This document shows positions 5,626 through 36,357 of a DNA stretch of 64,000 nucleotides, one piece after another; within the stretch, counting starts at the first letter, position 1; each line of letters begins with the position of its first letter. A program made the translations under genes and the position numbers. The notes beneath the pieces are model-generated. The model searched no databases. It was not told where the DNA came from and worked only from the letters and a program-made list of their open reading frames with translations. The stretch is from Escherichia coli. GTDB lineage: Bacteria; Pseudomonadota; Gammaproteobacteria; Enterobacterales; Enterobacteriaceae. The stretch lies in NCBI RefSeq assembly GCF_013122565.1, contig NZ_CP053258.1. One strand, written 5' to 3'.

Positions 5626-6666
5626 TTATGGTGCAGGATAAGTATAAACCTGATGTACCGCTTCAATTTCAGCTAATACGTCTTCGCTTAACTCCAGATG
5701 CAAACTTTCGACGTTAGTTTTCAGCTGCTCCATCGTGGTTGCGCCCAGCAGAGTGCTGGCAACAAACGGTTGACGGCGTACAAAAGCGAGCGCCATCTGA
5801 GCAGGATCCAGCCCATGACGTCTGGCAATATCAACATACGCCGCGACGGCTTTTTGCGTTTGCTCACCGCTATAGCGGGTGAACCGACTAAAGAGCGTAT
5901 TACGTGCGCCAGCGGGTTTTGCACCATTGAGATATTTCCCGGTCAGCGTACCGAAACCCAGGCACGAATAGGCCAGCAGTTCGACCCCTTCATACTGGCT
6001 GACTTCTGCCAGACCTACTTCAAAACTGCGGTTTAATAGACTGTAGGGGTTCTGAATGGTGACAATACGCGGCAGATCGTGTTTGTCCGCCAGATGCAGG
6101 TAGCGCATTACGCCAAATGCAGTTTCGTTCGACACGCCGATATAACGAATTTTTCCCGCGCGTTGGTACTCTGCCAGTGCGTCCAGCGTATCCAGCAGCG
6201 AAACCGCAGGCGCAGAATCCGTCCAGCTATAACCGAGTTTGCCGAAGCAGTTGGTTGGGCGCTGCGGCCAGTGCACCTGATAAAGATCGAGGTAATCAGT
6301 CTGCAGACGCTTGAGGCTGTCATGCAGCGCTTCGCGGATATTCTTCCGATCCAGCGCCTGATCCGGGCGGATGCCTTTGTCATTATTGCGCGACGGTCCG
6401 CTCACTTTGGAGGCGATAATTAACTTTTCGCGGCTGCCATGTTTCGCCAGCCAGTTGCCGACGTAGGTTTCGGTTAACCCTTGCGTTTCGGGGCGCGGAG
6501 GTACTGGGTACATTTCGGCAACGTCGATAAGGTTAATGCCCTGAGCGACGGCATAGTCGAGTTGTGCGTGGGCGTCGGCTTCGCTGTTCTGTTCACCAAA
6601 CGTCATCGTGCCAAGCCCCAGCGTGCTGACTTCCAGCGAACTGTGGGGTATACGGTGATATTGCAT
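5626..6666 (-). CDS. tas: Aldo-keto reductase Tas
   Basis: Start set at MQYHRIPHSS (ATG 6664-6666), giving 346 aa; the track ORF is extended 18 codons upstream; aldo-keto reductase-like sequence. Confidence 0.88.
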   Translation of the reverse strand: MQYHRIPHSSLEVSTLGLGTMTFGEQNSEADAHAQLDYAVAQGINLIDVAEMYPVPPRPETQGLTETYVGNWLAKHGSREKLIIASKVSGPSRNNDKGIRPDQALDRKNIREALHDSLKRLQTDYLDLYQVHWPQRPTNCFGKLGYSWTDSAPAVSLLDTLDALAEYQRAGKIRYIGVSNETAFGVMRYLHLADKHDLPRIVTIQNPYSLLNRSFEVGLAEVSQYEGVELLAYSCLGFGTLTGKYLNGAKPAGARNTLFSRFTRYSGEQTQKAVAAYVDIARRHGLDPAQMALAFVRRQPFVASTLLGATTMEQLKTNVESLHLELSEDVLAEIEAVHQVYTYPAP

Positions 6667-6773: not shown

Positions 6774-6992
6774 TTAACGTTCAATAATTTGCGAAACATC
6801 ATCACGGTTAATTTGCATCGCGTTACCTTGCTGATCGTGATAACTCACCAGCCCGGTATCATCATCAATTTCAGGTTTTCCATCGGTCAAAATCATACGG
6901 CCATCTTTGGTCGCCATGACGTAATCACTGGAACACCCGGAAACAGCAAACGCCAGTCCGACTGCAGAAATTATTACTGCCCATTTTTTCAT
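6774..6992 (-). CDS. ygdR: Small lipoprotein, DUF903 family
   Basis: 72 aa; signal peptide with lipobox (AVSGC); paralog of the ORF at 40388; synteny. Confidence 0.85.
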
Positions 6993-7129
6993 CCGGTTAT
7001 CCTCATTTGGCCCACCTATGATAATAGTCTGTTTATAAACTGACGTTATATATCTTGAAAGCAGGAAAATCTTAAACTGTGAGGGTAACAGGAGTGAGTA
7101 CGCCCTCCCGCAGGAGAGCGTACGGAGTA

Positions 7130-29253: not shown

Positions 29254-30507
29254 ATGTCAGGATCCAACACTGCAATCAGCCGTCGTCGTTTACTGCAAGG
29301 CGCGGGCGCCATGTGGCTATTGAGCGTAAGTCAGGTCAGTCTGGCTGCGGTCAGCCAGGTCGTGGCGGTGCGCGTCTGGCCTGCGTCCAGCTACACCCGT
29401 GTGACGGTAGAATCAAATCGTCAGCTGAAATATAAGCAGTTCGCGTTGAGTAACCCGGAACGCGTGGTGGTGGATATCGAAGATGTAAACCTGAACTCGG
29501 TACTCAAGGGGATGGCGGCACAAATTCGTGCAGACGACCCGTTCATCAAGTCGGCGCGCGTCGGGCAATTTGACCCGCAGACCGTACGCATGGTTTTTGA
29601 ATTAAAGCAAAACGTAAAACCGCAGCTGTTTGCCCTTGCGCCGGTCGCCGGGTTTAAAGAGCGTCTGGTGATGGACCTCTATCCGGCCAATGCACAGGAT
29701 ATGCAGGACCCGCTGCTGGCGCTGCTGGAGGATTACAACAAAGGCGACCTCGAAAAGCAGGTGCCGCCAGCGCAAAGTGGTCCACAACCGGGTAAAGCAG
29801 GGCGCGATCGTCCGATTGTCATTATGCTTGACCCTGGCCACGGTGGCGAAGACTCCGGTGCGGTGGGGAAATACAAAACGCGCGAAAAAGATGTGGTATT
29901 GCAAATAGCTCGCCGTTTGCGCTCTCTGATCGAGAAAGAGGGCAATATGAAGGTGTACATGACGCGCAATGAAGACATCTTCATTCCGTTGCAAGTGCGC
30001 GTAGCAAAAGCCCAGAAACAGCGTGCTGACCTGTTTGTCTCTATCCATGCCGACGCCTTTACCAGTCGCCAGCCGAGCGGTTCCTCGGTGTTTGCGCTCT
30101 CAACCAAAGGCGCAACCAGTACTGCGGCAAAATATCTGGCACAAACCCAGAACGCCTCGGACTTGATTGGTGGCGTGAGCAAAAGCGGTGACCGCTATGT
30201 CGACCACACCATGTTCGATATGGTGCAGTCGCTGACCATTGCCGACAGCCTTAAGTTTGGTAAAGCGGTGCTGAATAAGCTCGGTAAAATCAACAAGCTG
30301 CATAAAAATCAAGTTGAACAGGCCGGGTTTGCCGTACTAAAGGCACCAGATATTCCCTCCATTCTGGTCGAAACGGCGTTTATCAGTAACGTTGAGGAAG
30401 AGCGTAAACTGAAAACGGCGACCTTCCAGCAGGAAGTTGCGGAGTCTATTCTTGCGGGGATTAAAGCGTATTTTGCCGATGGGGCGACGCTGGCGAGAAG
30501 GGGATGA
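29254..30507 (+). CDS. amiC: N-acetylmuramoyl-L-alanine amidase AmiC (Tat-exported)
   Basis: Start at [21 protein letters not shown] (twin-arginine signal), ATG 29254; amidase_3 domain; 417 aa. Confidence 0.9.
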
Positions 30508-30682
30508 TGTTTTTAATTTATTCAATGAATTTATGTTTCATTGAATAAATATTATTTACATAAATGTTGAACGATGGTTTTGTGACTGCTGTCGAATATT
30601 TGAATATCGGCTTAAAAAATAAGCCTGCCATCTCTTTTATTAAGCACAATTCCGTGTAAGGTATACGCATTAGTTAATTATC

Positions 30683-30754
30683 TTGTAACTGTTAAATCAG
30701 GCAAGGCAATGTTTGAAGTAATTATTACTTCTGACATGCCTTGCCTTTTTTTTT
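30683..30754 (+). promoter_or_regulatory. RAT-like sequence overlapping an intrinsic terminator (antitermination leader)
   Basis: TCTTGTAACTGTTAAATCAGGCAAGGCAA resembles bgl/sac RAT elements (TTGTTACTG...CAGGCAAAACC); it overlaps the 5' arm of a long imperfect hairpin (30698-30746) followed by a 9-T run; RBS GGAG and ATG 30766 follow immediately. Confidence 0.6.
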
Positions 30755-30765
30755 GGAGCCATGGA

Positions 30766-31590
30766 ATGATCATCGAAAAAGTCATGAACAATAATTGTGT
30801 ACAGGCATCGGTGAACGGACAGGAGGTTATCATTTCTGGGCCTGGCGTTGGTTACAATAAAAAATATGGTATGTCGGTCCCTGAACATCCTGCAAACCGG
30901 ATTTTTTATGTCAGAAATGAGCAAAAAAATAAACTCTACAAATTGATTGAGCATGTGGGTATTGAGTATATTTTTGTTGCCGAAAAGATAGTGCATTATG
31001 CGGAGAGTAATCTCGAAAAAAAACTCAATCCATCGCTACTACTGATTCTTGCTGATCACATTTCGAATGCAATATCCCGAGTCGTCTCAGGCATACAAAT
31101 TAATAATGTTTTCCTTGAGGAAATCAAAGCGTTGTACAAAGCAGAGTATGCAATAAGTCGTGATGCATTAACAATCATTAATGAGCAATTTAGCGTTCAA
31201 CTACCGGATGATGAGATTGGTTTTATAGCATTGCATATTTTAAATAATTATGAGAATTCAGTTGATTATGAATCAGTACGGATTATTGAGCTGTCTCAAA
31301 AAATCACGGAGCTTATTGAAGTAGTTTATAACAGAAGAGTGGACAGAAGTTCATTTAACTACTCCAGATTTATGATGCACCTTAAATATTTTTCTAGTCG
31401 TGTGTTATGTAATGAAAAAATAAAACAGAAAAATATTGGTGATATCTATGAGCAGTTTCTTGAAAAAGATTTTCAGTTACAACGTGCCATTCATGAAATT
31501 GAAAGATATCTGTACGCAACTTTTAAATATGATTTGATTCTGGAAGAAAAACTATATCTTTCTATTCGCATCAAAGTATTAATGGACTAA
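30766..31590 (+). CDS. BglG/LicT-family transcription antiterminator (CAT RNA-binding domain plus two PRD domains)
   Basis: Start at MIIEKVMNNNCVQASVNGQEVIISGPGVGY (CAT-domain pattern) with RBS GGAG 8 nt upstream; PRD-like histidines (LILADHISN, IALHILNN); about 274 aa; AT-rich codon usage. Confidence 0.75.
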   Translation: MIIEKVMNNNCVQASVNGQEVIISGPGVGYNKKYGMSVPEHPANRIFYVRNEQKNKLYKLIEHVGIEYIFVAEKIVHYAESNLEKKLNPSLLLILADHISNAISRVVSGIQINNVFLEEIKALYKAEYAISRDALTIINEQFSVQLPDDEIGFIALHILNNYENSVDYESVRIIELSQKITELIEVVYNRRVDRSSFNYSRFMMHLKYFSSRVLCNEKIKQKNIGDIYEQFLEKDFQLQRAIHEIERYLYATFKYDLILEEKLYLSIRIKVLMD

Positions 31591-31621
31591 TTATACATAA
31601 CATTTTCATGAGATAACCCGT

Positions 31622-33202
31622 ATGAAACAAAAGAAAGCCTGGAGTTTTTTTCAGAGCCTGGGGAAGGCATTTATGTATCCCATCGCTCTGTTAAGTGTAT
31701 GTGGTATGATGTTAGGGCTGGGAAGTGGTTTAGCCAGCGATGATATGGCAAAATTAATTCCAGTGTTGGCTATTCCGTTAATTAAAACCATACTTGATTT
31801 TATTGTTAGCCTTGGTTTGTTTGCCTTCGTTAATTTACCTGTATTGTTTGCGATAGCTATACCTTTGGGATTATTAAAAGAGAAAGATGATAAAGCCTAT
31901 GGCGCTTTTTCTGGCTTAATTGGCTTTATGGCGATGCATCTTGGAACGAACTTTTATCTTAAACAGCACGACTTATTGGTAGCTGCTGACCAAATGTCGA
32001 CACATGGGCAAACCATCATACTCGGGATCCAGTCATACAATACCAGCGTGTTGGGTGGGATTGTGGCAGGGTTATTAGTCGCCAGCATGTATAAAAAGAT
32101 CGTTAACTTACGTATTCCTGAATCATTAGGGTTTTATAGTGGCCCACGCCTGGTGCCTATCATTACACTGATTGTGATGAGTGGATTTGGTCTGATCATT
32201 CCTTTTATCTGGCCGCCATTTTTCAATCTTTTCATGCTCATTGGTCACTGGATTTCAACTTCCGGTCCTGTTGGTTATTTCTTCTATGCTGTTGCCGAAC
32301 GCGTGACGATACCTTTTGGCTTAAATCACTTGGTGACATCAGTTTTCCGCTTTACCCCAATCGGCGGATCGGCAGTGATTGGCGGTGAAGAGTATTACGG
32401 CACCCTGAACATGTTTATGGCATACGTCAAAGAGAATGCGGTCATTCCGCTGGATTTGGCGGGGAAAATGGAGCAGGGCAAACTGATGATTCAGTATGGT
32501 CTGGCTGGAGCCGCGCTGGCGATGTATCGCACTGCTCATGCTCAAAACAGAAGGGCTATCAAAGCATTGCTGATTTCCGGTGTGCTCACGGTAATTATTG
32601 GCGGCGTCAGCGAGCCGATTGAATTTCTGTTCTTATTTGTCAGCCCGCTGTTGTTTGTCTTCCATGCCTTTATGAATGGATTGGCTAACATGGTTCTGCC
32701 ATATATGGGCGTGAAGATGGGCTTTACTGGCGATCTGATTCAATTTATTAGCTTTGGTGTCTTACGTGGCACAAGAACGGGATGGCCATTAGCGGTATGT
32801 GTTGAAGTGGCTTATTTCTTCATTTATTACTTTGTGTTCCGTTGGACCATTCTCAAATTTAACCTGATGACTGTAGGCCGTGAAGAGTCCAGTCCTGTCA
32901 CGCTGAACGCTCACGAAGAAACTGCAATAGCTAACATCCCAGTTCATGATAAATCAGAGTTGCAGGCAGCGGAGCAAATGGTTAAGGCTCTGGGTGGTAA
33001 AGAAAATATTAAATCACTGGATAATTGTGTAACTCGTTTGCGTTTAACTATCGCGGATATGGGATTGATAGATGAGGCTGCAATAAAAAGGGCCGGAGGA
33101 ATTGCGGTTGTGAAACTTGATCAAAATACCTTACAAGTCATTATCGGTACAAAAGTCATCGCACTACGTCGGGATATGGATAACTACATGGGGATATGTT
33201 GA
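31622..33202 (+). CDS. PTS EIICB component, glucose/maltose (MalX-like) family
   Basis: 526 aa; N-terminus FFQSLGKAFMYPIALLSVCGMMLGLGS and C-terminal EIIB motif SLDNCVTRLRL closely resemble MalX/PtsG as I remember them; no EIIA domain. Confidence 0.8.
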   Translation: MKQKKAWSFFQSLGKAFMYPIALLSVCGMMLGLGSGLASDDMAKLIPVLAIPLIKTILDFIVSLGLFAFVNLPVLFAIAIPLGLLKEKDDKAYGAFSGLIGFMAMHLGTNFYLKQHDLLVAADQMSTHGQTIILGIQSYNTSVLGGIVAGLLVASMYKKIVNLRIPESLGFYSGPRLVPIITLIVMSGFGLIIPFIWPPFFNLFMLIGHWISTSGPVGYFFYAVAERVTIPFGLNHLVTSVFRFTPIGGSAVIGGEEYYGTLNMFMAYVKENAVIPLDLAGKMEQGKLMIQYGLAGAALAMYRTAHAQNRRAIKALLISGVLTVIIGGVSEPIEFLFLFVSPLLFVFHAFMNGLANMVLPYMGVKMGFTGDLIQFISFGVLRGTRTGWPLAVCVEVAYFFIYYFVFRWTILKFNLMTVGREESSPVTLNAHEETAIANIPVHDKSELQAAEQMVKALGGKENIKSLDNCVTRLRLTIADMGLIDEAAIKRAGGIAVVKLDQNTLQVIIGTKVIALRRDMDNYMGIC

Positions 33203-34410
33203 TGGATATTTTTAATACCTCAATTTCTCGTAAAGGAACATATTGCACACAATGGGACTTTTGTGAAGACAGATTTGGTGTAAAAGATGTATTACCATTC
33301 TCTATTTCAGATATGGATCTTCCGATACCGGAAGCTATCATCAGAACATTAAAAAAACGTCTGGAACACCCGATTTTAGGGTACAGTCGTTGGCAGCATG
33401 ATGACTATCTGAATTCGATAGTCAATTGGTATCATCAACAATATAAAACAGAGATTCAACCAGAATGGATCACCTATAGCCCAAGCGTGATGTATTCAAT
33501 ATCTAAGGCAATAGAAATATTGACATTGAATGGAGATAATATTCTCATTTTCACGCCTGTTTATAACGCATTTTATGATGTGATTAAGCATAATGGTCGA
33601 AACATGCTAACAACCTCTTTGATGAAAGAAAATGGGAGAGGCTACGTTATCAACTGGCAAGACTTTGAGCTTAAAATTAAAAGCGCGAAGATGGTGTTAT
33701 TATGTAATCCTCATAACCCGACAGGAACGGTCTGGTCGGAAGACGATCTTCACAGAATCGCAGCATGCTGTGCAAGGCATAATATTTGGTTATGTTCAGA
33801 TGAAATACATAGTGATTTTGTTTTTAATCATAGTTTCACGTCAGCGCTAACAATAAAAGATGACAAAGTGGTGGTGTTTAATTCGATTTCGAAAACATTT
33901 AATGTTCCTGCGCTAACCGGATCATATATGATTTCAACTGACGATAATTTTAATCATAAGTTCAGAACGATATCGAGGTATCGCGATTTTGTAAACTCCC
34001 CATCAGTACTGAATGTAATTGCGACCATTGTTGCCTATAATGAATGTGAAGAATGGTTAAAGTCATTAAAGGTACATATTGCCTCTAACATTCAATTTAC
34101 CTTGCAGTATTTAAATGAAAATATTCCGGAATTGATCGTATGGCCAGCTGAGGGCTGCTATTTTTCGTGGGTTGATTGCTCGGCCCTTGGTTATCCCTTT
34201 GATAAATTTTACCGTCGATTAATTAACGAAGGGAGAGTAGGTATTATGGCGGGGCATGTTTATGGTACTGAAGGAGAGGGCTATCTGCGTCTTAATCTGG
34301 CCTGCAGTCGAGAAAAATTATATATGGGGCTTGCGCGCCTTGCGAGTGTAATTAAAAATATTAATCAGGAAAAAGAAAATGAACAATACGGATCTTATCC
34401 ATCTTATTAA
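33202..34410 (+). CDS. PLP-dependent C-S lyase / aminotransferase class I-II, MalY/PatB-like
   Basis: N-terminus GTYCTQWDF..DRFG..DVLPFSISDMD closely parallels MalY (GTWCTQWDY..DRFG..LLPFTISDMD); start taken at ATG 33202 (TGATG overlap with the PTS stop, GGGGA 7 nt upstream); alternative ATG at 33196. Confidence 0.78.
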   Translation: MDIFNTSISRKGTYCTQWDFCEDRFGVKDVLPFSISDMDLPIPEAIIRTLKKRLEHPILGYSRWQHDDYLNSIVNWYHQQYKTEIQPEWITYSPSVMYSISKAIEILTLNGDNILIFTPVYNAFYDVIKHNGRNMLTTSLMKENGRGYVINWQDFELKIKSAKMVLLCNPHNPTGTVWSEDDLHRIAACCARHNIWLCSDEIHSDFVFNHSFTSALTIKDDKVVVFNSISKTFNVPALTGSYMISTDDNFNHKFRTISRYRDFVNSPSVLNVIATIVAYNECEEWLKSLKVHIASNIQFTLQYLNENIPELIVWPAEGCYFSWVDCSALGYPFDKFYRRLINEGRVGIMAGHVYGTEGEGYLRLNLACSREKLYMGLARLASVIKNINQEKENEQYGSYPSY

Positions 34411-34975
34411 ACATTTTATGCGTAACGAACATAAAGCAGTAGAAGAGGTTATTGATTCCCCCCTTTCGGAAGTCGCGAATTTAATTAAAATATTACAATC
34501 TTGCCAGGGAAAAGTTGTTTTTATTGGTGTTGGGAAATCTGGCATTATTGCCAGAAAACTTGCTGCAACATTTGCCAGCACCGGAACTCCCTCGTTTTTT
34601 GTTCACGGTACGGAAGCGGTACACGGCGACCTTGGGATGGTGGCGAAAGACGATGTTGTTATTCTTATTTCAAACAGTGGTGAGACGGCGGAAATCCTGG
34701 CGACACTGCCTAGTTTGAAAAAAATGGGTAATTATTTGATCTCTTTTACCCGCAGTCATCACTCATCGCTTGCGATAAGTTGTGATTTATCTGTTGAAAT
34801 CCCCGTCAAAAGTGAGGCGGATAATTTAGGTTTAGCACCGTCATGCTCGTCTACTGTTGTTCTGGTTGTTGGTGATGCGGTGGCGCTTGCACTCTCTGAA
34901 TTGAAAAAATTTACTCGTGCTGATTTCGGCTTATATCATCCAGGAGGTGCACTCGGCATTAAAGCAAATTCATAA
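34379..34975 (+). CDS. SIS-domain sugar-phosphate isomerase (KdsD/GutQ-type SIS without CBS domains; candidate arabinose-5-phosphate isomerase)
   Basis: 198 aa; VFIGVGKSGIIARKLAATFASTGTPSFFVHGTEAVHGDLGMV matches the N-terminal SIS domain of arabinose-5-P isomerases; no CBS tail; RBS AGGA upstream; overlaps the upstream gene by 32 nt. Confidence 0.75.
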   Translation: MNNTDLIHLIKHFMRNEHKAVEEVIDSPLSEVANLIKILQSCQGKVVFIGVGKSGIIARKLAATFASTGTPSFFVHGTEAVHGDLGMVAKDDVVILISNSGETAEILATLPSLKKMGNYLISFTRSHHSSLAISCDLSVEIPVKSEADNLGLAPSCSSTVVLVVGDAVALALSELKKFTRADFGLYHPGGALGIKANS

Positions 34976-35046
34976 TTTCAAAGTATAAATACAGTAACCG
35001 GTCACGCCATCTTTTGGGGTGGCGTTCATTGAAGTGAGTGTCAGCT

Positions 35047-35994
35047 ATGAAAAATGTTCTGGTCACCGTCCCCAGCTTTTCAGCACGCTGTGTTTCCGCC
35101 AGCAAGTTGCTAAGAGAGAATAATTTTAACCTTATTATTAAGAATAATGTGGAGCATCTGCTTAAATCAGAATCCACTGCATTACGAGAATCTATTTGCG
35201 CGGTCATCGCCGGAAAAGATTGTTACCAGGCGGACACGCTATCATTGCTGCCTGGTGTGAGAATAATATCGAGATTCGGGACGGGGATAGATAATATTGA
35301 TCTTCGTGCAGCACAACAATCCGGTATTGTAGTCAATAATGCGGTTGGGATTAATTCAAATGCTGTCGCGGAATTTATCATTGGACTTATCTTCGCGAGC
35401 ATGAGAAATATTCCTGGCAGCTATCATGCGATGCAAAATGGCTACTGGGGTGAGTCGCATGGCTATGAATTACAAGGCAAACGGATTGGCCTGGTTGGCT
35501 ACGGCAATATAGGTAAAACCCTGGCAAAAAGGTTATCCGGTTTTGATGTTGAGCTTTTAGCTTATGACAAACAACCCGATTATCAGGTTGCTGACAAAGT
35601 TGGAGTTCAGTTTGTATCAATTGAAGATATCTTTATGCAGTCGCATGTCATCATTGTTCTTTTGCCTTTTTCTCCTGAGCTGGAGAACTTCATTAGTCAT
35701 AAATATTTGTCGATGATGCGCAATGGTGCTCTAATCATCAATGCCGCAAGGGGAAAGTTGCTGGATGAGGGCGCTTTACTACAGGTGATTGAAGAACGAA
35801 ATGTGTTTGCGGCGCTGGATGTGTTTAGCTCTGAACCGTTGGCGCAATTTAGCCCACTGCTACATGCCAAAAATATCATTACAACGCCGCATATTGCGGC
35901 CGCCACCGTTGAGTCATACCAGCAAACCGGTACACACGTTGCCCAGTCGATAATTGATTACTTCGCAGGAAGGGAGATAAAAAACGTGTTGTGA
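35047..35994 (+). CDS. D-isomer-specific 2-hydroxyacid dehydrogenase (NAD-binding)
   Basis: About 315 aa; Rossmann motif GLVGYGNIGKTLAKR; family-typical TTPHIAAAT near the C-terminus; alternative GTG start at 35038. Confidence 0.75.
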   Translation: MKNVLVTVPSFSARCVSASKLLRENNFNLIIKNNVEHLLKSESTALRESICAVIAGKDCYQADTLSLLPGVRIISRFGTGIDNIDLRAAQQSGIVVNNAVGINSNAVAEFIIGLIFASMRNIPGSYHAMQNGYWGESHGYELQGKRIGLVGYGNIGKTLAKRLSGFDVELLAYDKQPDYQVADKVGVQFVSIEDIFMQSHVIIVLLPFSPELENFISHKYLSMMRNGALIINAARGKLLDEGALLQVIEERNVFAALDVFSSEPLAQFSPLLHAKNIITTPHIAAATVESYQQTGTHVAQSIIDYFAGREIKNVL

Positions 35995-36062: not shown

Positions 36063-36139
<77 letters not shown>

Positions 36140-36357
36140 CCACCCCGCGTCCGTGGATGCGCACTATACTCCGCTCGCGTTTTCATGCAACCTTTTTTTT
36201 ACCCCGATCACGGTTCTGGCATGATTTTGAACAAAAACAAATCACTAAAGCCTATTTTTTGTGCAAAATTTGCGTCAGGGAGAGGCTGCTCATTTCATTA
36301 AACGCGGCGGTTTGTTATCTTCGTTGCGCCTTATTTTTTAACCTGAAGAAGAGAACA

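Follow-up and report, generated by a model that had tools for sequence, protein, structure and literature searches.

A probable RAT/terminator switch in the leader of an amiC/tRNA-Met phosphotransferase operon of Escherichia coli

The leader and its RAT-like element

The window, a 64,000-nucleotide stretch of the Escherichia coli contig NZ_CP053258.1 (RefSeq assembly GCF_013122565.1), carries a five-gene phosphotransferase system (PTS) operon between amiC and a tRNA-Met gene. The first gene encodes an antiterminator with a CAT domain and two PRDs, and its 5' leader contains an element that resembles the ribonucleic antiterminator (RAT) recognized by proteins of the BglG/SacY/LicT family and that overlaps an intrinsic terminator. 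A 258-nt AT-rich spacer (GC content 0.30) follows amiC, whose end is at 30507. Between 30670 and 30770 the leader consists of UAUCUUGUAACUGUUAAAUCAGGCAAGGCAA, the remainder of a long inverted repeat, nine T residues, a GGAG motif and the ATG at 30766. The first two genes are referred to below as pafR and pafP, an assignment discussed with the operon. The features of the leader and its first gene are as follows.

30681..30707, + strand: RAT-like antiterminator hairpin, U2 to G27 in RAT numbering, with its core at 30683-30704 (fold, motif and covariance models)
30699..30746, + strand: intrinsic terminator hairpin (RNAfold free energy and z-score); the 3' half of the RAT makes up its basal 5' arm, 30699-30708
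30746..30754, + strand: terminator U-tract, T9 (direct reading; invariant in 9/9 leaders)
30755..30768, + strand: Shine-Dalgarno motif GGAG and start ATG at 30766-68 (direct reading and PGAP start)
30766..31590, + strand: antiterminator gene of 274 aa, CAT + PRD1 + PRD2, very probably pafR (CFT073 c3405) (Pfam, NCBIfam and structure alignment)

The RAT-like sequence quoted in the first-pass annotation, TCTTGTAACTGTTAAATCAGGCAAGGCAA, is present at 30681-30709, and the resemblance to the RAT consensus claimed there was recovered by both motif and model searches. The pattern TTGTWACYGN{4,8}CRGGCA has one match in the 64 kb on both strands, where 0.01 is expected. The element has the conserved RAT core, which is made up of UUGUNACUG, a loop region of 4-6 nt and CAGGCAA and provides the upper and middle stems and the internal loop 2. 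Comparison with the experimentally established RATs of the K-12 bgl operon, GGATTGTTACTGCATTCGCAGGCAAAACC and GGATTGTTACCGCACTAAGCGGGCAAAACC, revealed that UUGU.ACUG and CAGGCAA are common to all of them and in register. Two covariance models, both built with the window element excluded, were then applied: R1 contains only canonical RATs, namely four from Bacillus subtilis (checked against the positions described in PMC1635312), two from K-12 and three from upstream of a Clostridium tertium licT-PTS operon, and R2 contains only five sequences fetched from databases. The top match of R1 in the window is 30683-30704, with 22 bits and an E value of 9e-5 (runner-up, E 0.1), and the same element is the top match of R2, with 15.7 bits and an E value of 0.013. 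R2 also recovers full-length RATs on which it was not trained, upstream of LicT-like genes in two other loci (23.6 and 20.5 bits in L015; 18.9 bits in L013). Neither model finds a second RAT in the window apart from weak matches with E of at least 0.1, and RefSeq annotates no feature at the 42-nt RAT element.

One such weak match, GGGUUGUU[24]CAAAACC at 35539-35577 on the minus strand (12-13 bits, E 0.1-0.25), lies antisense to the fifth gene of the operon and is kept in two orthologues (L004 11540-11578 and L006 11784-11821, both on the minus strand). Its similarity is confined to the base of a RAT, and it is most likely a chance occurrence within coding sequence. In the C. tertium licT-PTS-GH1 operon (L014), three canonical RATs were located at 5802-5821, 6869-6890 and 7077-7098, the first ahead of licT and the other two within the 318-nt spacer between licT and the PTS gene, the last having no obvious terminator in the sequence shown.

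The RAT element folds in RNAfold into a hairpin with two paired segments. One is formed by the pairs U2-G27, C3-G26, U4-A25, U5-A24, G6-C23 and U7-G22, and the other, the upper stem, by C10-G21, U11-A20 and G12-C19, with A8 and A9 unpaired between them and an apical loop of UUAAAU. The predicted free energy of this hairpin is -6.3 kcal/mol, compared to -7.2 kcal/mol for the K-12 bgl RAT (bgl t1).

The terminator hairpin is far more stable. RNAfold places it at 30699-30746, one base shorter than the 30698-30746 originally proposed, with 21 pairs and, at two points, one unpaired base in each arm. Its free energy is -28.5 kcal/mol, compared to -9.6 +/- 2.5 kcal/mol in 200 shuffled sequences (z -7.66), none of which is as stable (0/200). 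The hairpin is directly followed by the nine T residues at 30746-30754, the first of which doubles as the last stem pair. The ribosome-binding site and start codon reported immediately after the T run are read in the sequence as GGAG at 30755-30758 and ATG at 30766, and the NCBI annotation pipeline PGAP places the antiterminator start at the equivalent base in near-identical genomes (L001/L004). An alternative ATG at 30761 has a spacing of only 2 nt from GGAG and reaches a stop after one codon. A consensus terminator scanner made no call on the hairpin 30699-30746, because it demands an uninterrupted stem adjoining the T run.

The two structures share sequence and exclude each other. As had been claimed, the RAT overlaps the 5' arm of the terminator: eight paired nucleotides of its 3' part (30699-30706) lie in the terminator base, and the same 8-nt overlap between RAT and terminator has been reported for licS (PMC5393181). 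Folding of the leader gave two mutually exclusive structures; forcing the RAT fold costs 13.6 kcal/mol relative to the terminator fold, compared to 10.6 and 8.9 kcal/mol for the two K-12 bgl switches. With the RAT forced, the terminator loses its basal 10 bp, and the U-tract no longer adjoins any stem.

AUUAU at 30677-30681, the 5' flank of the RAT (AUCAU in the majority of alleles), is complementary to the start-codon region AUGAU at 30766-30770, and RNAalifold and the single-sequence minimum free energy fold both predict this pairing with the terminator folded. It could dampen translation of leaky transcripts. Another candidate interaction in this region, the self-complementarity of UAAUUA that would pair 30674-79 with the terminator loop, was dropped, as it is missing in Atlantibacter.

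The antiterminator, its operon and their conservation

PafR has the domain organization of the BglG/SacY/LicT family. Pfam analysis revealed an N-terminal CAT domain (PF03123 CAT_RBD, residues 1-55, E 8.7e-14) and two PRDs (PF00874, residues 73-160, E 1.6e-23, and residues 178-266, E 0.016). Residues 57-270 align with the PRD1-PRD2 structures of LicT, 1TLV and 1H99, and the LicT structure 6TWR was also aligned. The NCBIfam scores all lie below the respective cut-offs, with 230.5 against 300 for LicT, 181.8 against 320 for GlcT and 104.7 against 322 for BglG. Close orthologues are 76-79% identical, followed by clostridial LicT at ~36%, and the closest non-orthologous relatives share only 34-37% identity. 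On these scores and identities, PafR therefore forms a separate subfamily. The family has four conserved phosphorylatable histidines, two per PRD. His98 and His157 of PafR correspond to the PRD1 residues His100 and His159 of LicT, and His205 corresponds to LicT His207. The fourth position, LicT His269, is occupied by Arg268 (window 31567-31569) in all PafR orthologues, whereas the histidine is kept in the clostridial relatives. In the activated LicT structure 1H99, it is the two PRD2 phosphorylation-site positions that carry Asp substitutions. The Arg268 replacement suggests altered HPr-dependent control.

The CAT-PRD gene begins 12 nt past the U-tract and is followed by the gene for an EIICB permease, which places the leader at the head of a PTS operon. 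The remaining features up to the tRNA gene are as follows.

31591..31621, + strand: intergenic gap of 31 nt (sequence reading and covariance models)
31622..33202, + strand: glucose/maltose MalX-like PTS EIICB without an EIIA domain, very probably pafP (NCBIfam)
33202-34410, + strand: PatB/MalY-type C-S lyase (NCBIfam)
34379-34975, + strand: short KpsF-like SIS protein without the CBS half (NCBIfam)
35038-35994, + strand: PGDH-like 2-hydroxyacid dehydrogenase (NCBIfam)
36073-36149, - strand: tRNA-Met, one copy in the window

The permease scores 539 bits against TIGR02004 (PTS-IIBC-malX), compared to a cut-off of 632, and has an EIIB_glc domain at residues 412-509. The absence of a second terminator from the 31-nt gap, stated in the first-pass annotation, is upheld: the gap holds neither a hairpin nor a U-tract, and no R1 or R2 match with E < 1 lies in or near it. 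The paf operon thus has no second RAT and terminator of the bgl type between the antiterminator and permease genes. The gene set from 31622 to 35994 is unusual, with a GC content of 0.30-0.48 compared to 0.54-0.56 in amiC, and the island was evidently acquired horizontally. At the site where the window has one tRNA-Met gene, strain USMARC-49610 has three in tandem.

The operon is very probably pafR-pafP, CFT073 c3405-c3410. A six-gene block annotated as 'PTS system, maltose/glucose specific', c3405-c3410, has been described in PAI-CFT073-metV and in all four uropathogenic E. coli (UPEC) strains examined (PMC2831201). Reviews name the regulator on the metV island pafR, together with pafP, and report that both genes are required for full virulence in a mouse model of urinary tract infection, affect biofilm and motility and have in vivo-specific expression; PafR is characterized there as an antiterminator (PMC8882828, PMC9981650). 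We take the operon to be pafR/pafP because the c3405-c3410 block and the pafR/pafP genes of the reviews are both placed on the metV island. The primary pafR literature may already mention the RAT element.

The operon is present in 1688/5426 complete E. coli genomes, always next to amiC and in two main allele classes, with the B2 strains IHE3034, UTI89 and NC101 among its carriers. The 42-nt RAT likewise occurs in 1688/5426 of these genomes, as a single copy of at least 95% identity in each, and no second copy was found in the E. coli genomes at BLAST sensitivity. One of the 1688 locus copies lies on a record typed as plasmid. When 100,044 species genomes were scanned for RATs of the paf type, only E. 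coli, E. whittamii, two Citrobacter species and Atlantibacter gave matches, apart from one chance match in a Cytophagales metagenome-assembled genome (L021), which was rejected, as neither a terminator nor a CAT gene follows it. The orthologous operon of Atlantibacter hermannii occupies the same amiC site. In the metagenome contig L008 the five-gene operon is found elsewhere in the chromosome, flanked by an LTXXQ gene and dnaQ/rnhA, with the same leader in front. Further orthologous loci from the species-genome scan are those of Citrobacter sp. MGH106 and FP75, of E. whittamii and of a third E. coli allele. The order of the five genes is identical in E. coli, Atlantibacter and L008.

Eight orthologous leaders and that of the window, nine distinct sequences in total, were aligned (alignment A3). 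All nine fold into the same terminator, with free energies of -25.7 to -30.1 kcal/mol, and its pairing is maintained in 96.6% of the alignment cells, whereas no slid register exceeds 54%. Compensatory changes occur at two pairs of the hairpin: five leaders have G-C and four have A-U at 30706/30739, and at 30715/30731 the numbers are seven for G-C and two for A-U. The stable hairpin directly before the U-tract has the features of a genuine intrinsic terminator under selection. Position 30706 is at the same time position 27 of the RAT, where the change turns the U2-G pair into U2-A, with pairing kept.

Upstream of the RAT, the alignment revealed a candidate promoter and a more speculative element.

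30654..30667, + strand: conserved promoter-proximal block GTGTAAGGTATACG (9-leader alignment A3)
30581..30596, + strand: CRP-like TGTGA half-site TGTGACTGCTGTCGAA, speculative (conserved at fixed spacing)

Across the leaders the block reads GTGTARGGTATA, in which TARKGT is the likely -10 hexamer (30657-62; TAAGGT in the window). In alignment A3, T8, A9 and T13 do not vary among the nine leaders; they correspond to the -10 hexamer positions T-12, A-11 and T-7. Transcription would accordingly start near 30669, judging from the position of this hexamer. TGTGA is preserved at a fixed distance from the block in E. coli, E. whittamii, Citrobacter, Atlantibacter and L008, amid otherwise divergent sequence. 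The element could be a CRP site of class I, with a weak right half (TCGAA) and a centre that the guessed transcription start would put at roughly -80 to -85.

Two further observations concern this region. A perfect 12-bp inverted repeat, TTATTCAATGAA-N7-TTCATTGAATAA, lies at 30518-30548, 11 nt past the amiC stop; it is kept in E. coli and, in changed form, in E. whittamii, is not found in Citrobacter or Atlantibacter, and may serve as terminator of amiC or as a palindromic protein-binding site. In E. coli ES7, one of the 1688 genomes, the IS5-like element ISEc68 is inserted in the paf leader (L022 4175-5468) at about window 30673/30674. It sits between the candidate -10 hexamer and the RAT, cutting the RAT/terminator and the operon off from the native promoter, and recalls the activation of the cryptic bgl operon by insertion sequences.

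Proposed switch and competing explanations

We consider it likely that the 5' leader of the five-gene amiC/tRNA-Met operon is a single-checkpoint, autoregulated and PTS-controlled RAT/terminator switch. In the proposed mechanism, transcription would start at the weak promoter ~12 nt upstream of the RAT, and by default the nascent RNA would fold into the 21-bp hairpin 30699-30746, so that RNA polymerase stops in the U9 tract, leaving a leader RNA of ~85 nt and the operon off. Active PafR would bind and stabilize the weak RAT hairpin 30681-30707, withholding eight nucleotides from the terminator base. With the RAT bound, hairpin formation would be limited to a distal stem separated from the U-tract by 9-10 nt, and polymerase would read through into pafR, pafP and the three catabolic genes.

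The input to the switch is envisaged by analogy to BglG/BglF and LicT/BglP. The idle MalX-like EIICB would phosphorylate PRD1 at His98 and His157, and these phosphates would be withdrawn during substrate transport. The proposal that the operon is silent unless its EIICB transports substrate comes from the BglG/LicT paradigm and is consistent with the conservation of both PRD1 histidines. The glucose-family EIICB permeases MalX and PtsG draw phosphate from EIIA-Glc, and PafP, which has no EIIA domain, would presumably do the same. As regulator and sensor both lie behind the only terminator, the circuit would be positively autoregulated and reliant on basal read-through, and such self-reinforcing induction fits the reported in vivo-only expression.

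Several observations weigh against this reading. The comparison with known RATs proposed in the first-pass annotation holds for the core and fails for the base: R1 and R2 match the canonical RAT only over positions 4-25/26 of 29, and neither the canonical basal G-C stem (1-29, 2-28) nor the lower internal loop (3 vs 26/27) is found in the paf RAT. Positions 1-3 are AUC and positions 28-29 are CA, and RNAfold predicts instead a continuous extension of the helix by C3-G26 and U2-G27. Several alternative registers for a basal stem, including one that pairs positions -1/0 with A29/A30, were rejected, as position 0 varies (U/C/A) without compensation. LicT contacts both internal loops of its RAT (PMC3105407), and loop 1 is missing here. 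The RAT stem is 100% paired with no covariation across the nine leaders; because it is invariant, covariation is silent on its structure. No Rfam family reaches its gathering score on the paf leader, and bglG-cis-reg (RF03530) gives 19.5 bits against a gathering score of 80. RF03530 matches the C. tertium licT leader at 38 bits and does not match the validated K-12 bgl leader either, which makes its negative result uninformative. The consensus scan found no promoter on the + strand in the leader, and the candidate -10 hexamer has no good -35. In PafR, PRD2 is weak in Pfam and one of the two PRD2 phospho-histidines of LicT is replaced by Arg268. Finally, Baum 2014 reportedly described the targets of PafR in UPEC as unknown in its abstract.

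The missing basal stem and loop 1, and a RAT stem with no covariation, would also be in keeping with the possibility that the leader holds a constitutive terminator or insulator with a decayed relic of a RAT, with PafR acting on other RNAs and expression being set by the promoter and the fraction of read-through. Review literature also notes many RAT-like motifs without roles in antitermination (PMC12591593), and the reported lack of known PafR targets (Baum 2014) points the same way. The pattern of conservation makes this improbable, as a relic would be expected to decay. The 5' half and apical loop of the RAT, which are not part of the terminator, are near-invariant across four genera, with one variable column of 19 in the nine leaders, whereas the flanks vary at 37-45% of their columns (11/30 upstream and 13/29 in the distal terminator, together 24/59; Fisher p = 0.004 for the RAT 5' half against both flanks). 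Moreover, the sole change in the RAT stem, G27 to A, keeps the pair with U2 and is compensated in the terminator.

A functional RAT might instead respond to a different CAT-domain protein encoded by the host, such as BglG. The core is common to the bgl RATs, and cross-talk within the family is documented in B. subtilis (PMC3105407). The RAT, however, co-occurs strictly with pafR across genomes, and the specificity residues point to PafR itself. LicT contacts its RNA through residues 5-10, Gly26, Arg27, Phe31 and Gln32, and specificity is determined at the position of Arg27 (Pro26 in SacT, Ala26 in SacY) and at that of Gln32 (residue 31 in SacT and SacY, Asn in SacY) (PMC3105407, PMC1635312). 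PafR reads KVMNNN...G25-P26-G27-V-G-Y30-N31-K-K and so combines the Pro of SacT with the Asn of SacY at these positions, and the paf RAT has G26 and a UAAA tetraloop, as in the sacB and sacPA RATs. BglG and C. tertium LicT have Arg at the specificity position and RATs with A26, and A26 is required for recognition by LicT-type (Arg27) proteins (PMC1635312). This correspondence of Pro26/Asn31 with G26/UAAA argues for a match of the paf RAT to PafR and not to BglG, whose Arg is replaced by Pro in PafR, and service by BglG is very improbable.

We give next to no weight to the view that the hairpin and T9 are simply the terminator of amiC and that the likeness to a RAT is coincidental. The hairpin does lie downstream of amiC on the same strand, 190 nt past its stop codon. 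In L008, however, the operon follows another gene with an identical leader kept, K-12-type genomes that have amiC and lack the island also lack the element, the motif has a chance expectation of 0.01 per window, and a separate AT-rich palindrome lies directly after amiC. Translational or leader-peptide control, in which a ribosome starting at ATG 30709, in frame with pafR, melts the terminator, or in which the predicted pairing of 30677-30681 with the start-codon region is the regulatory event, is hardly credible either, as Citrobacter, Atlantibacter and L008 have ACG in place of ATG 30709, which also lacks a usable Shine-Dalgarno sequence, and the long-range pairing gains only ~2.5 kcal/mol and shows no covariation.

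Within the antitermination switch, it is possible, though doubtful, that the paf RAT represents a minimal subclass consisting only of the upper stem, loop 2 and the middle stem, matched to a Pro26/Asn31 CAT domain. If so, recognition by PafR would be asymmetric or of a geometry other than the quasi-symmetric two-loop mode of LicT, the element would escape searches that require the canonical structure and would be the missing direct target of PafR, and the virulence-linked operon would be a positive-feedback, possibly bistable switch that is induced only in vivo.

About one in three complete E. coli genomes carries the island, the B2 extraintestinal pathogens UTI89 and IHE3034 among them, and the conserved RAT/terminator in its own leader offers a concrete candidate RNA target for PafR. 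A terminator of -28.5 kcal/mol ahead of both regulator and sensor is a simple possible reason for silence in culture. A fusion of the leader to a reporter would be usable as a screen for the inducing PTS substrate, and the non-canonical base of the RAT bears on what portion of the two-loop RAT is needed by a CAT dimer. Antitermination by the BglG family, as generally understood, is not altered by these results.

Comparison with known antitermination systems

The evidence supports placing the paf leader in the BglG/SacY class of RAT/terminator leaders, in a named but poorly understood virulence-associated operon. The closest counterpart by host is bglGFB of E. coli itself, in which a CAT-PRD regulator likewise comes first and is followed by the PTS sensor. 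The paf and bgl RATs are similarly weak hairpins with a similar energy gap between RAT and terminator. The two operons differ in that bgl has two RAT/terminator pairs whereas paf has one, with none between regulator and permease. Compared to the bgl RATs, the paf RAT lacks the basal GG/CC stem and the A3/A26-A27 loop, and has G26 in place of A26. Correspondingly, PafR has Pro26 where BglG has Arg, and its 105 bits fall far below the BglG equivalog cut-off of 322. The permeases are also distinct: BglF is a beta-glucoside EIIBCA, whereas that of the paf operon is a MalX-like EIICB without EIIA.

In RNA and protein detail the paf pair resembles SacT/sacPA and SacY/sacB of B. subtilis, with which it shares the UAAA tetraloop, G26 and the Pro of SacT and Asn of SacY in the regulator. 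In Citrobacter and Atlantibacter the 3' strand of the paf RAT, CAGGCAAGAC, is the same as that of sacB (the B. subtilis sequence being checked against the positions described in PMC1635312). Unlike sacB and sacPA, positions 1-3 of the paf RAT are AUC and not GGU or GGA, so that a basal stem is impossible, and the sugar specificity and the catabolic genes of the paf operon are different from those of the SacT and SacY systems.

The glucose-family permease of the paf operon recalls GlcT/ptsG of B. subtilis, where the lower RAT region also departs from the canonical loop, and GlcT is the second-best NCBIfam match of PafR. There, however, glcT lies ahead of the RAT, which is located between the regulator and permease genes. 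Moreover, in the ptsG RAT the lower part is still closed and contains a base triple (PMC1635312), whereas the paf RAT is predicted to form a continuous helix with no such closure. Also comparable in kind is Rfam RF03530, a curated family of RAT-terminator leaders of bglG/licT operons, which does not cover enterobacterial RATs, as the K-12 bgl leader goes unmatched.

The layout of the paf operon is the same as that of nagY-nagE of Enterococcus faecalis, which has one RAT/terminator in the 5' untranslated region of the antiterminator gene, followed by a PTS EII gene, and which is autoregulated; its RAT is likewise of low similarity to the consensus, and the system is linked to virulence (PMC9981650). 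The two differ in RAT sequence, in the additional targets in trans of NagY, such as hylA, and in the Gram-positive host and N-acetylglucosamine permease of nagY-nagE. Altogether, what sets the paf leader apart within its class is a single checkpoint ahead of the regulator, as in nagY-nagE, together with a RAT that has neither the basal stem nor the lower loop.

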